From an uncultured Gemmatimonadales bacterium (lineage in GTDB: Bacteria > Gemmatimonadota > Gemmatimonadetes > Longimicrobiales > RSA9), in assembly GCA_963798085.1 (NCBI GenBank), contig CAWCRS010000012.1, positions 32,986-96,985 of the forward strand: a stretch of 64,000 nt of DNA, given 5' to 3'. The stretch's first letter is position 1; each line of letters begins with the position of its first letter. A model generated the notes under the pieces. That model was not told where the DNA came from. It was given only the letters and a program-made list of their open reading frames with translations, and did no database searches. Positions 45,506-50,714 of the stretch are shown here, one piece after another. A program made the position numbers and the translations under genes.

Positions 45506-47929
45506 ATGGACGGCTTTGTGAAGGACTTCCGGTATGCGTTCCGGCGCATCGCGAAGAGTCGGGGGTTTTCGGCGCTCGTGGTGCTCACGCTGGCACTCGG
45601 GATGGGCGCGAACACTGCCATTTTCAGTGTGGTGGACGCGGTGCTGCTGCGGCCGTTGCCGTATTTGAACCCGGACCGGCTGGTCACCATTGAGCACCAT
45701 TATCCGGGCCTCGGCCTGGATGCACCGGTTTCGGCGGTGGGCTTTCGTGATTATCGCGACCGGACGCACAGTTTCGCGTCGGTGGCGGTGCAGTCACCGT
45801 GGGGCGCGAACCTGACGGGATACGGCGAACCGGTGCGCATCGCGGCTTCACGAGCGAGCGCGCAGTATTTCTCCACGCTCGGCGTGGCGCCGGCGCTGGG
45901 GCGCACGTTTCTCCCGGAGGAAGACGAGCCGGGCCGGCACTACGTGGCCGTGCTGTCGTGGGGGCTATGGCAGAGGCAGTTCGGCGGCGCGGCGGACATC
46001 CTGGGCAAGTCCATCTCGCTGAACGGGGAACCCTACCTGATCATTGGCGTGATGCCGGCCGGATTCCGCAGCTTCTTCGGCCGCACCACGGAGCTGTGGG
46101 TGCCGCTGGCCCTCACGGCGCAGCAGTTCGCGCAGGGTTACACCAACGAATACCTGTCACTGACGGCGAGACTCAAGCCGGGCGCGACCGTCGAGCAAGC
46201 GGCCGCCGAGATGCACCAGTTCGCGGAAACGCTGAAACAGGAACGGCCCGACCAGTTCCCCAGGGACTGGTCGCTCAAGGTCACATCCCTCGATGAAAAG
46301 GCCACCGGCAACATCCGGCCGGCACTGCTGGTGCTGCTGGGCGCGGTGGGCTTTGTGCTGCTGATCGCCTGCGCCAATGTGGCTAACCTGCTGTTGGCTC
46401 GTGCGGCGGGCCGGCTCAAGGAAGTGGCGGTGCGGCTGGCACTGGGCGCACGGCGCTGGCAGCTGATCCGGCAGCTGCTGGCGGAGAGCACCGTGCTGGC
46501 CCTGGCCGGCGGTCTGCTGGGTGCGTTCCTCGCCTGGGCCGGCATTCGCGCACTCACGCGCGCACTGGACGTCTCGGCACTGCTGGGCCAGAACGTTGCC
46601 GTGGACGGCAAGGTGCTGGCCTTCACGGGCCTCCTGGCACTGGCCACGGGCATCCTGTTCGGCATGGCACCGGCGCTGCAGAGCACGAAGACCGACGTGC
46701 AGGAAACACTGCGTGAAGGCGGCCGCGGCGGCGCCGCCGACCGGTCGGGCCAGACAATGCGCCGGCTATTCGTGGTGGCGGAATTCGGCCTGGCACTCTC
46801 GCTGCTGGCCGGGGCCGGCCTGCTCATGCGCAGCTTCGCCCGCCTCGAGGGCGTGGACCCCGGCTTCGCTCCTGACAACCTGTTAACGGCGACCGTGGCG
46901 CTGCCCGCCACGAAGTATCCGAACGACACGGTACGCGTCGCATTCTTCGACCGCCTGCTGGCGCAGCTGGCGGCTGTGCCCGGCGTGCGCGCCGTGGGCA
47001 CGACGCAGGTGCTGCCCTTCGGCGGCTCCTGGTCGACCAACAGCTTCAGCGTCGAGGGCTACACTGTGCCGCAGGGACAGAACGGGCCCTGGGGCGATCT
47101 GCGCATTGTCAGCCCGACGTACGCGCAGGCCATGAAGATTCCGCTGCTCAAGGGGCGTTTCCTCAGCGACCAGGACGGTCTCAATGCGCCACGCGTCGTG
47201 GTAATCGACGAAGAGATGGCGAAGCGCTACTGGCCGGATGCCGATCCCATCGGCAAGCGCATCACGTTCAGCGACCCCGGCGATCCGAACGCCGTGTGGT
47301 GGCAGGTGGTGGGCGTCGTGGGGCACACCGCGCACGAAGGACTGGATGCCGAACGGCGCTCGCAACGCTACTACTCCTACCGCCAGCTGCCCGTGAGCGC
47401 GGCATCCGTCGTGGTACGCACGCAGGGCAACACCCTGCAGTACGTCAGCGCCCTGCGTCTGGCTCTGCACAATGTCGACGCCGAGCAGCCGCTTTCGAAC
47501 ATCGCCCCCATGAGCGACCTGATCGACCGCTCCGTCGGGCAGCGCCGGCTGGCCATGCTGCTGCTCATTGTCTTCGCCACCATCGGCCTGCTGCTCGCCG
47601 CAACCGGCATCTATGGCGTCATGTCGTACAACGTGACGCAGCGCGCACAGGAGATGGGCGTGCGCATGGCGCTGGGCGCCGGCCGCCGCGATGTGCTCGC
47701 CATCGTCATGAAACAGGGCCTCGCCCTGGCCGGCACCGGCACCGCCATCGGTCTGCTGGGCGGACTCGCACTTACCCGCGCGCTGAAGAGTCAGCTCTTC
47801 GGAATCCAGGCGACCGACCCGGTCACGTTCGCCGCCGTCACCCTGCTGCTCGTGGCGATCGGCGCGTTCGCGACCGCACTCCCCGCCTGGCGGGCCACCC
47901 GCCTCGACCCCATCCAATCCCTCCGGTAA
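45506..47929 (+). CDS. Duplicated MacB/FtsX ABC permease (ADOP-like)
   Basis: KDFRYAFRRIAKSRGF, LLIACANVANLLLAR, second FtsX half GIYGVMSYNVTQR..EMGVRMALGA, RLDP. Confidence 0.93.
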   Translation: MDGFVKDFRYAFRRIAKSRGFSALVVLTLALGMGANTAIFSVVDAVLLRPLPYLNPDRLVTIEHHYPGLGLDAPVSAVGFRDYRDRTHSFASVAVQSPWGANLTGYGEPVRIAASRASAQYFSTLGVAPALGRTFLPEEDEPGRHYVAVLSWGLWQRQFGGAADILGKSISLNGEPYLIIGVMPAGFRSFFGRTTELWVPLALTAQQFAQGYTNEYLSLTARLKPGATVEQAAAEMHQFAETLKQERPDQFPRDWSLKVTSLDEKATGNIRPALLVLLGAVGFVLLIACANVANLLLARAAGRLKEVAVRLALGARRWQLIRQLLAESTVLALAGGLLGAFLAWAGIRALTRALDVSALLGQNVAVDGKVLAFTGLLALATGILFGMAPALQSTKTDVQETLREGGRGGAADRSGQTMRRLFVVAEFGLALSLLAGAGLLMRSFARLEGVDPGFAPDNLLTATVALPATKYPNDTVRVAFFDRLLAQLAAVPGVRAVGTTQVLPFGGSWSTNSFSVEGYTVPQGQNGPWGDLRIVSPTYAQAMKIPLLKGRFLSDQDGLNAPRVVVIDEEMAKRYWPDADPIGKRITFSDPGDPNAVWWQVVGVVGHTAHEGLDAERRSQRYYSYRQLPVSAASVVVRTQGNTLQYVSALRLALHNVDAEQPLSNIAPMSDLIDRSVGQRRLAMLLLIVFATIGLLLAATGIYGVMSYNVTQRAQEMGVRMALGAGRRDVLAIVMKQGLALAGTGTAIGLLGGLALTRALKSQLFGIQATDPVTFAAVTLLLVAIGAFATALPAWRATRLDPIQSLR

Positions 47930-47946
47930 TGTGCGTCCCCCCGCGC

Positions 47947-48600
47947 TCACGGCGGTGGAAGAACAATGGAAGAGACGACAGCGAAGCGGGTGAGGTTGTT
48001 GGGGTGGTCTTCGATGTCGTACGCGAGGATGGCGAGGCCGTGCCGGGCGGCCGCGGCGCGGCTGGCAATGGCGGCCAGGGCGGGGTCGCCGCTCTGGGCT
48101 ACGATGCGGGCGGCACCGGCGGTGTCGTGGACCTCGACGGCTTCGACGTTGTCGAGTCCGGACAGCAGGGCGTGGCATTGCCGCAGGGCCACGGGGTGCG
48201 AGAGGACGCGGCGCACACCGTCGAGGGGTGCGCCCGGCAGGGCCAGCAGGCACTGGTGGATGCCGCGCACCAGCTCCCGTATCACACGCAGGCCGCGCGC
48301 CTCTAACACGGCGTTCAGATTGGTGATGGGTCCGGCAATGGAGTTCTCAATGGGCAGCACGCCGTAGTCGGCGTGGCCCCGCATCACGGCCTCGGCCACG
48401 GCGTCGAAGTCGGGCTGTGGCAGCGTGATGGCGCCGGCGCAGAACACCAGCGCGGCCTCTTCGCTGAACGCGCCAGGCTCGCCCTGATAGGCAATGCGCG
48501 GTCTCGTTTCCGAGCGGTGCGCGGCGCCGGGTACACTGCCCGGTGTGTGCGCGCGCGCCGGCTTGCGTTCGCTGGCCCACGCCTCACGGATCTGTCTCAC
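47947..48600 (-). CDS. pheA: Prephenate dehydratase, catalytic domain only (no ACT domain)
   Basis: IAYQGEPGAFSEEAA, GVLPIENSIAG, SHPVALRQC, IED..NNLTRF. GTGA overlap with the chorismate mutase stop. Confidence 0.88.
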   Translation of the reverse strand: MRQIREAWASERKPARAHTPGSVPGAAHRSETRPRIAYQGEPGAFSEEAALVFCAGAITLPQPDFDAVAEAVMRGHADYGVLPIENSIAGPITNLNAVLEARGLRVIRELVRGIHQCLLALPGAPLDGVRRVLSHPVALRQCHALLSGLDNVEAVEVHDTAGAARIVAQSGDPALAAIASRAAAARHGLAILAYDIEDHPNNLTRFAVVSSIVLPPP

Positions 48601-48926
48601 GACTCCTCCATCTGGGCGCGGCGGCACAGCCCGATCAATTGCCAGAAAATGTCGCGAACGATTTCGGCATCAATCCCGTGCGCACTCGCCTGGTTCGCGG
48701 CGCGACGTACGACGGCGGCTTCCTGTGCCGGATCGAGTGCGGGCAGCGCCGCACTGCGTTTGCTCTGGCCGACCGCGCGCGCCAGGCGCCTGCGCTCGGC
48801 AATCAGCGCGATGAACTGCGCATCGATGGCCTCGATTGCGGCGCGCAGGTCGTGCAGCCCGGGGCCGGCAGCGGCGGTGCTGATGACGCCCGCCGCCCGA
48901 TCGCCGGAAAGGGAGTCGCCGCTCAT
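48597..48926 (-). CDS. Chorismate mutase (AroQ, type II)
   Basis: LHDLRAAIEAIDAQFIALIAERRRLARAVGQSK...DPAQE. ATGA overlap with aroF. Confidence 0.88.
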   Translation of the reverse strand: MSGDSLSGDRAAGVISTAAAGPGLHDLRAAIEAIDAQFIALIAERRRLARAVGQSKRSAALPALDPAQEAAVVRRAANQASAHGIDAEIVRDIFWQLIGLCRRAQMEES

Positions 48927-49988
48927 GCGGCAGCCTCTTTCTGCAGCGCACGCACAGGTCGGGCCACGGTGCGTCCGATCGCGTGGGCGACGGCTTCCAC
49001 GCCGCCCATCATGTGCGCGAAGGCGCGCGCGTCGAGCGATTGCTCACCATCGGAAAGTGCGGCTGCGGGCCGCGGGTGCACTTCCACGATCAGGCCATCC
49101 CCGCCCGCGGCGATCGCGGCCAGGGCGAGCGACGGAACCAGCTCGGCGCGACCGGCCGCGTGACTGGGATCGACGATCACGGGCAAATGGCTTTCCCTGC
49201 GCAGCACGGCAATGGCGCCGACATTCGAGCGTATTGCGCGTCGCGCTCTCGAATGTGCGAATGCCGCGCTCGCACAGGATGACCTGCGTGTTGCCGCGCA
49301 CGAGGATGTACTCCGCCGCGAGCAACAGCTCTTTCACCGTCGCGGCCATGCCGCGCTTCAGCAGGATGGGCCGGCGGATGCGGCCCAGCTCGGAGAGCAG
49401 TGCGAAGTTCTGCATGTTGCGCGCACCCACCTGCAGCATATCCGCGTGCGCGGCCACGCGCTCGATCTGGCGCGCGTCCATGACCTCCGTGACCACGGGC
49501 ATGCGTGTCTCGGCGCGCACCCGCGCCAGCATGGCCAGCGCGCTTTCACCCAGACCCTGGAACGACCAGGGCGAACTGCGTGGCTTGAATGCACCGCCTC
49601 GCAGCAGCGTGGCGCCCGCCGCCTGCACGGCTCTGGCCGTGTCGCGCAGCATGTCCAGACCTTCCACCGAGCACGGACCGGCAATGACGACGACGGCTGA
49701 CGCGCCGAAGACCGTACCCGCATCGTCGCCTGCTCTGACGAGGGTCTGCCGCGTATTGAATCTGCGCGACGCGAGCATGCAGTCCGCGTCGGGCAGCGTG
49801 CTCTGCACGGCGGGCGGCGCGGCGCGACCGGCCCACGGCAGGGCCGCAGCGTCGTCCGCATCCGGGCAGGCAACAACGGTGTTAGAGCCATTCCCGGCGA
49901 TGCGCGTGCGCAGGCCCATCGCCTCGAGCCGCTCGCGCGCATCATCGATCTCGTCCGCAGTGGCATCACTTCGCATCACGATCAGCAT
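48923..49988 (-). CDS. aroF: DAHP synthase, type I-beta with N-terminal regulatory domain, one indel at about 49224
   Basis: IAGPCSVE, LRGGAFKPRSSP, QVGARNMQNF, ILCERGIRTFE..TRNTL. After a frame switch it continues HLPVIVDPSHAAG...DGLIVEVHP..ALSDGEQSL. Confidence 0.92.
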
Positions 49989-50042: not shown

Positions 50043-50070
50043 AAAAAAAGCCCGTGGTTTTCCACGGGCT
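50043..50070 (-). terminator. Attenuator terminator hairpin of the aroF leader
   Basis: The minus strand reads AGCCCGTGG-AAAA-CCACGGGCT followed by a U-tract (A7 at 50043-50049 on +), about 55 nt before the aroF ATG. Confidence 0.9.
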
Positions 50071-50096
50071 CGGTTCGGGCTTGTCTGTACGCTCGG

Positions 50097-50180
50097 TCAG
50101 CGCGACACAACGCCTCCACCACGGCCCGTGACACGGGTCGCGTAAAAGTAGTAATAGAAAAAGGCGCGTGCGCTTTGCAT
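50097..50180 (-). CDS. Phe/Tyr-rich leader peptide MQSARAFFYYYFYATRVTGRGGGVVSR
   Basis: ATG at 50180-50178, TGA at 50099-50097. Codons 7-13 are TTT TTC TAT TAC TAC TTT TAC. Below the ORF-track size cut-off. Confidence 0.88.
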   Translation of the reverse strand: MQSARAFFYYYFYATRVTGRGGGVVSR

Positions 50181-50276
50181 GATGCTGTTATGGATGACGC
50201 CGCGTGGCGCAATTGTCAAGCCAGGCACCCTCGCTCCCGCATGCGCGTGCGTACCCCGGCCGCGCAGGGGTCGACG

Positions 50277-50714
50277 TCATTCCGCCGCCCTGGCGGCCGG
50301 ACGACCGCGACGTTTCGCCAGCCAGCCGTCGATGCTGAACGCGCCCGGTCCCGCGACGAAGTAGAAGAGGAACACCCACGCGTAGATGGCCACGACCTCG
50401 CCGCGGTTGACCCAGGGCCAGAAGCCGCGCGGCGCGTGCATCCAGAAGTAGGTGACGGCCATCTCGCCGGACACAATGAAGGCGGCGGGTCGCGTGAACA
50501 GACCGAGCATGAGCAGCGCGCCGCCGCACAGCTCGATGATGCCCGCGGCGCCGAACCGCGTGTGCAGATCCGCCGTGCCGTGATTTGCGCCGAAACCGCC
50601 GAACCATCCGAGGATCTTCTGCGCACCATGCGAAAAATACAGGAATGCCACCACAATGCGCGTGAGTCCCTGAACGATGCGCAGTTCCGCTGTGCTTCTG
50701 GCGCTCAACTTCAC
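50277..50714 (-). CDS. DoxX-family membrane protein
   Basis: RIVVAFLYFSHGAQKILGWFGG, IELCGG.LLMLGLFTR.AAF.VSGEMAVTYF, GPGAFSID. Confidence 0.93.
   Translation of the reverse strand: MKLSARSTAELRIVQGLTRIVVAFLYFSHGAQKILGWFGGFGANHGTADLHTRFGAAGIIELCGGALLMLGLFTRPAAFIVSGEMAVTYFWMHAPRGFWPWVNRGEVVAIYAWVFLFYFVAGPGAFSIDGWLAKRRGRPAARAAE

Follow-up and report, generated by a model that had tools for sequence, protein, structure and literature searches.

Upstream of genes for DAHP synthase (aroF), chorismate mutase (CM) and prephenate dehydratase (PDT, pheA), the genome of an uncultured Gemmatimonadales bacterium carries a short open reading frame with seven consecutive Phe and Tyr codons, raising the question of whether this leader controls the operon and which of the two amino acids it would sense. 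We analyzed the locus in a 64,000-nt stretch of contig CAWCRS010000012.1 (the window) and compared it with homologous loci in other genomes. The initial annotation had described a "translational" attenuator; what the sequence points to, with a probability of about 0.93, is a ribosome-mediated transcription attenuator of aroF, CM and pheA, in which translation would be coupled to termination of transcription.

Architecture of the leader and its operon

All elements of the predicted attenuator and the genes behind it lie on the minus strand of the window, as follows.

50214..50219 (−): TTGACA, a −35-like hexamer 39 nt 5′ of the leader ATG; a TTG-type hexamer recurs in homologous leaders
50097..50180 (−): leader ORF of 27 codons, from translation of the minus strand; 36 of 58 homologous leaders have 27–28 codons
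50142..50162 (−): putative regulatory codons FFYYYFY, codons 7–13, with Phe12 and Tyr13 at the modelled switch point
50133..50141 (−): segment 1 (protector arm), directly 3′ of the last Tyr codon; fold and alignment
50121..50130 (−): segment 2, partner of segment 1 (protector) or segment 3 (antiterminator); fold and alignment
50105..50117 (−): 3′ part of the leader ORF, able to pair with codons 3–7 (outer protector helix); fold
50089..50103 (−): small hairpin over the leader stop codon, nested in the predicted antiterminator; fold
50062..50071 (−): segment 3, 5′ arm of the terminator; terminator prediction and alignment
50043..50057 (−): segment 4 and U7 tract, predicted intrinsic terminator; terminator prediction
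48923..49988 (−): aroF, type I-beta DAHP synthase with a divergent N-terminal ferredoxin-like domain and a frameshift near 49224; protein-domain searches
48597..48926 (−): chorismate mutase (CM_2, AroQ), its start overlapping the aroF stop; protein-domain searches
47947..48600 (−): pheA, prephenate dehydratase without an ACT domain, its start overlapping the CM stop; protein-domain searches

The 27-codon ORF and its FFYYYFY run, on which the initial annotation was built, are thus present, and the run is the only one of at least six Phe/Tyr codons in all six frames of the 6.23-Mb genome. The AT-rich patch noted there corresponds to a G+C content of 57% in the leader versus 67–68% in window and genome, and the proposed aroF–chorismate mutase–pheA order was borne out by the domain searches, with aroF frameshifted as assembled. 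The exact leader peptide had no match among ∼15 billion predicted proteins.

As predicted earlier, the leader ends in a terminator hairpin with a U-tract; its stem (50071–50048) has 10 bp and a 4-nt loop, and the U7 tract occupies 50049–50043. The four segments and the pairings 1:2, 2:3 and 3:4 were also recovered. CCCGTG and CACGGGC, given as segments 1 and 2, cannot pair in full because only 1 nt separates them; hairpin 1:2, at about 50141–50121, consists of a 5-bp core, a 3-nt loop and 3–4 outer pairs. Two helices had been omitted, one formed by codons 3–7 with 50117–50105 and one at 50103–50089, and the former, the outer protector helix, is weakly conserved, beating shuffles in 19 of the 58 leaders. 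Duplex energies are −10.5 (1:2), −15.6 (2:3) and −18.8 kcal/mol (3:4), and the fold of the whole leader has a z of −2.6. When segment 3 was swapped between leaders, the window's own duplex ranked low, in a comparison confounded by arm length. No Rfam family was matched at its gathering score in the window's leader, nor in 20 homologous loci; the best sub-threshold scores were those of Thr_leader (25.7/55 bits), Leu_leader (19.4/50) and Trp_leader (17.8/41).

Translation from a probably leaderless mRNA

No Shine-Dalgarno sequence precedes the leader ATG in the window, and SD-like motifs were found at 2 of 57 leader ATGs versus 24 of 34 aroF starts. A TTG-type hexamer lies 33–39 nt 5′ of the leader ATG in 50 of the 57 leaders (35–36 nt in 30), and homologous leaders show a −10-like T/A pattern 13–7 nt before the ATG. 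The window's own −10 element is imperfect and non-standard, and a consensus scan of the window detected no promoter. Since the spacing between promoter and ATG is that of leaderless transcripts, the window's leader is probably translated from a leaderless mRNA that begins at the ATG or only a few bases away. This point goes beyond the initial annotation, as does the reuse of the scaffold before other genes described below. Leaderless transcripts with such promoter spacing are known from Streptomyces, where several attenuator peptides are leaderless according to excerpts of PMC8079986.

The reading frame of the 58 leaders holds 287 aromatic codons, versus 39 and 81 in the two other frames. Phe is encoded by TTT in 41 of 78 cases in the aligned leaders versus ∼10% in long ORFs of the window's genome, a rough comparison as the leaders come from many genomes and the background from this one.

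Conservation of the leader and its RNA structure

A DAHP synthase-like match was found in all 61 genomes searched, and the leader precedes the closest DAHP synthase in 33 of the 42 relatives with upstream sequence. Among the best 29 loci from relatives, 27 carry a clear leader, one has a degenerate version without ATG and one has no upstream DNA (27/28). In the next 14, leader and terminator were found six times, and the eight loci devoid of the element all belong to one other family (f2). None of 20 more distant DAHP synthases and none of six further partial matches is preceded by the leader. Homologous leaders have kept the frame, the length, the aromatic run, the terminator and the 2:3 pairing, so that the comparison with relatives, which the initial annotation had put forward as a refuting test, spoke for the leader. 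At two loci (L014 and L016) the start of aroF is partly duplicated ahead of the leader; the leader of L014 lacks an ATG and has a weak U tract.

A covariance-model search gave matches at E ≤ 0.01 in 62 of 151 genomes sampled across the phylum; among the weakest of these matches, many are plain terminators. A pattern search of named genomes gave at least 120 matches; among the matches listed, 30 have a leader ORF and a U tract, and 28 of these are labelled Gemmatimonadota; five are identical in sequence to loci found in the family or order of the window's genome. Outside the phylum, leader and phhA, the gene for phenylalanine hydroxylase, occur together in two records, labelled Thermoanaerobaculia (Acidobacteriota) and Bifidobacteriaceae (L134, L163), for which transfer, wider ancestry or mislabelled bins are possible readings.

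On the alignment of 58 leaders, 96% of the terminator cells are paired, with two-sided changes at 7 of 10 pairs. Hairpin 1:2 is paired in 85% of cells, and 1:2 plus 3:4 together in 92%. The antiterminator 2:3 likewise reaches 92%, with two-sided changes at 5 of 8 pairs; its covariation score was reached by 0 of 500 shuffles, and slid controls were 33–46% paired. As 24 of the 58 rows had been selected by a pattern that fixes part of segments 2–4 and the other 34 by protein, changes inside the pattern-fixed core can stem only from the latter. In an independent set of 44 covariance-model matches, one of them a reverse-strand artefact, 2:3 was weaker: 84% of cells are paired, the covariation score was reached in 6 of 500 shuffles, and pair counts were not above those of shuffles. 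The antiterminator helix, for which the initial annotation had proposed a covariation test, covaries, more weakly in the independent set.

A proposed kinetic switch at the last aromatic codons

Modelling of a ribosome on the 58 leaders placed the lowest mean energy advantage of the terminator, 13–14 kcal/mol, at positions where one of the last three aromatic codons occupies the A site, compared with 21–22 kcal/mol three to nine codons later and 20 kcal/mol without ribosome. In the window the minimum lies at Phe12 and Tyr13 (6.5 and 6.2, against 18 and 13.2). Equilibrium folding of an RNA ending before segment 4 gave 2:3 a probability of ∼0.96 for a ribosome on any of codons 5–15, and the same value without ribosome and with a ribosome at the stop codon. 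Once segment 4 exists, 3:4 dominates whatever the position of the ribosome on codons 5–15, so equilibrium folding with a ribosome mask did not reproduce an on/off switch. Because 3:4 prevails at equilibrium once the RNA is complete, any switch would have to be kinetic.

From the sequence we infer translation, termination and the starvation response of the leader, which could be linked as follows. RNA polymerase would start at or next to the leader ATG, and the leader would be translated without a Shine-Dalgarno sequence. With plentiful Phe and Tyr, the ribosome would pass codon 13 and occupy segment 2 or sit between segments 2 and 3, allowing 3:4 to form and transcription to stop near 50043. 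If Phe- or Tyr-tRNA ran short, it would stall at about codons 11–13 and cover segment 1, leaving segment 2 free; 2:3 could then form before segment 4 is made, and the operon would be read through.

Leader codons follow the downstream genes

We counted codons from codon 4 to nine codons before the leader end, excluding duplicates and leaders with unresolved operon; operon classes were assigned by hand.

aroF..pheA operons (n = 10, the window's included, one also holding tyrA): F32 Y27 W6; 10 of 10 with at least two Phe and at least one Tyr codon
aroF..tyrA operons (n = 28): F24 Y106; 14 of 28 without Phe, 7 of 28 with at least two Phe codons
aroF with no CM, PDT or tyrA seen (n = 10): F23 Y24 W6
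pheA or CM-pheA first (n = 6): F22 Y7
tyrA or CM-tyrA first (n = 2): F0 Y7
phhA leaders (n = 16): F0 Y54 W4; one has a Phe at codon 3, outside the counted codons
hisG leaders (n = 6): H35

The mean Phe fraction is 0.55 in pheA operons versus 0.16 in tyrA operons. This higher Phe content where pheA is in the operon supports sensing of Phe as well as Tyr. A response of the attenuator to both amino acids, i.e. to charged tRNA-Phe and tRNA-Tyr, is fairly probable from these data, and a little more so if the attenuator itself is taken as given.

The same attenuator might also answer to one amino acid only, either Tyr, the commonest signal of the family, or Phe, with the other codons being tolerated passengers. 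Such a restriction would have a parallel in Corynebacterium glutamicum, where the FYF leader of aroR-aroF responded to Phe but not to Tyr in the experiment reported in PMC11802643. It would also fit the position of Phe7 and Phe8 outside the modelled optimum and a phylogenetic contrast of Phe content with pheA that comprises too few independent pairs (2–3, none against, sign test not significant). We nevertheless consider it unlikely, as Phe12 and the Tyr codons 11 and 13 all lie at the modelled optimum, and the last four regulatory codons contain Phe in 10 of 10 and Tyr in 8 of 10 aroF–pheA leaders and Phe in 0 of 16 phhA leaders.

Beyond aromatic amino acids, the same or a related scaffold occurs in single examples upstream of thrA, leuC and cysH (PAPS reductase), where it holds Thr/Ile, Leu and Cys codons, respectively. 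It is also present in a leader rich in Cys that lies near a TonB-dependent receptor gene and in one containing Cys and Met upstream of a HAD hydrolase gene; the loci of these examples are L102:2959–3105 (+), L247, L267, L269 and L254. The window's genome itself has a His-rich leader with seven His codons on the same scaffold before hisG (G000:C5:160853–160993 (+), locus L226), with TTGACA 36 nt upstream and a terminator; hisG is frameshifted in the assembly. At G000:C2:47395 (−), a 31-codon ORF with TTGACG at leaderless spacing and a terminator contains only two Met codons, and the gene after it presumably encodes methionine synthase.

Among the best 30 phhA loci, the leader was found in 8 of the 11 in the group closest to the query and in 0 of 19 others. 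Tyr-rich, Phe-free phhA leaders, a few with one Trp codon, are those of L078, L096, L131, L137, L157, L177 and L198; more come from L200, L205, L207, L208 and L233–L235. At L289/L200 (G113:C19, ∼85874) the leader ATG directly follows a tRNA-like sequence, recognized by eye, and not a promoter of its own. Tyr-only phhA leaders suggest a use of phenylalanine 4-monooxygenase for tyrosine supply. That genomes with a phhA leader lack tyrA held only partly: tyrA was found in 8 of the 16 (4 of 8 near-complete ones) versus 114 of 151 in the phylum sample. PhhA thus often appears to be a second route to Tyr, not the sole one.

With some hesitation, we lean towards a common reading of these leaders, in which amino-acid biosynthesis in Gemmatimonadota would be run by one uncatalogued family of leaderless attenuators whose chassis was duplicated and whose codons before segment 1 were swapped. 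They would be Phe and Tyr (with or without Trp) for DAHP synthase operons, Phe for pheA, Tyr for tyrA, His for hisG, Thr/Ile for thrA, Leu for leuC, Cys for cysH, and Tyr, never Phe, for phenylalanine hydroxylase. If true, this normally catabolic enzyme would be a tyrosine-supply enzyme.

Genome context argues against a relic or an upstream terminator

The hairpin could be the terminator of the upstream genes, as doxX, which follows an amidohydrolase gene, is on the same strand and ends at 50277; alternatively, the leader could be a relic before a decaying operon, and no regulation would take place. Decay might be read from aroF, which is frameshifted as assembled, sits on a long branch and has an N-terminal regulatory domain (49988–49730) so divergent that its Pfam score falls below the cut-off, and from a second DAHP synthase in the genome. 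This second enzyme is encoded on another contig, with no such leader before its gene. In relatives, the leader accompanies aroF regardless of the genes upstream, and in the window all its parts are intact. The frameshift is probably an assembly error, because a short-read contig (2 mismatches in 255 bases) has one base fewer at 49224 and frameshifts occur in 7 of the 71 loci tested in this assembly; at about 1 in 10 conserved loci, broken genes in this assembly need caution. Moreover, pheA of the operon is the only PDT gene found in the genome. We therefore regard a terminator or relic as highly improbable.

It is about as improbable that the element acts through its nascent peptide, by ligand-dependent arrest as in TnaC, or through a protein or riboswitch on the same hairpins, and not through a shortage of charged tRNA: the A-T-R..G-R peptide pattern that recurs after the aromatic run and might suggest a peptide function results from translating RNA segments 1 and 2 and varies together with the terminator arms, the codons give way to His, Thr/Ile, Leu or Cys codons where the genes downstream serve those pathways, and the Rfam search matched no T-box or riboswitch aptamer in the window's leader and the 20 homologous loci.

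The PDT ends just past its catalytic domain, and this short end looks real, as near-identical short-read contigs span 47908–48126 without gaps. Given the divergent regulatory domain of the DAHP synthase and a PDT (48600–47947) without ACT domain, enzyme-level feedback in the operon may be reduced, and Phe feedback on pheA may come mainly from the leader in this genome. A tyrA-like gene lies on another contig without a leader, and phhA was not found in this genome, which is 90% complete. The idea that dual sensing reflects synthesis of Tyr from Phe via PhhA was rejected, as no phhA was found and a tyrA-like gene is present.

Relation to known attenuators

The four-segment model of the E. coli pheL and trpL attenuators is well established, and the initial annotation's comparison with them is supported by the cognate codons, the cognate genes, the terminator and the conserved 2:3 pairing. 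The C. glutamicum aroR-aroF attenuator was reportedly studied by Neshat et al. (2014), and the attenuation surveys of Vitreschak (2004) and Lopatovskaya (2010) may already include mixed Phe/Tyr leaders of other phyla.

E. coli pheL-pheA, trpL, hisL and thrL (PMC11802643 and PMC3082878) share with the window's leader a short ORF with cognate codons, a protector, an antiterminator and a terminator with U tract, all ahead of cognate biosynthesis genes. Unlike these, the leader studied here scores below the Rfam gathering thresholds, is probably leaderless, belongs to a scaffold used for several amino acids, and has its stop codon ∼8 codons beyond segment 2.

For a leader with both Phe and Tyr codons at a DAHP synthase gene there is a precedent in C. 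glutamicum aroR-aroF, where a Phe-Tyr-Phe leader precedes aroF (excerpts of PMC4046766) and ribosome stalling is described for the leader peptide. By published layout, that leader differs from ours in having three regulatory codons (FYF) and not seven, in responding to Phe only, and in belonging to another phylum. The predicted uORFC-13-1 motif of Acholeplasma, with 24 representatives in Acholeplasma and environmental sequences, likewise places a Phe-containing uORF and an intrinsic terminator before aroF; unlike the window's leader it has a ribosome-binding site, and its uORF is described as having just at least one Phe codon (sections of PMC8632094). Streptomyces lividans trpL1, leuL2 and ilvL are leaderless attenuator ORFs followed by Rho-independent terminators; they serve other amino acids and genes, and in the excerpted text of PMC8079986 their starts were mapped by RNA-seq, whereas ours derive from promoter spacing.

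A predicted RNA motif lies upstream of Shewanella aroF, for which sensing of Tyr-tRNA is cited (part of PMC2659441), and putative attenuators before aro/tyrA operons are described in several phyla in portions of PMC1173090, where phhA is treated as catabolic. Excerpts from PMC3082878 and PMC4833913 contained nothing further on Gemmatimonadota, and a term search of PMC2965389 had no hits. In agreement with the initial annotation, which knew of no such leader in this lineage, our search of the main texts of freely accessible papers found no description of the element in Gemmatimonadota or before phhA. The window's leader is likely a classical attenuator of an uncatalogued RNA family.

Implications

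The window's leader appears to be a well-supported new example of a textbook device, and it contributes a gene that had not been called and a regulatory site to a soil phylum that has been little studied. Its interest would lie mostly in the family, with its putative leaderless scaffold and pathway-matched codons, including a Tyr-only leader on phenylalanine hydroxylase. This family is more useful than the single case: with Phe-only, Tyr-only and mixed codon runs on one scaffold, it offers a direct way to test how the signals of several tRNAs are combined in a single leader, and whether a leaderless mRNA can support attenuation. The alignment is also a possible starting point for a new Rfam family. 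Finally, leader codons may indicate how a gene is used in the cell, as for phenylalanine hydroxylase as a source of tyrosine.
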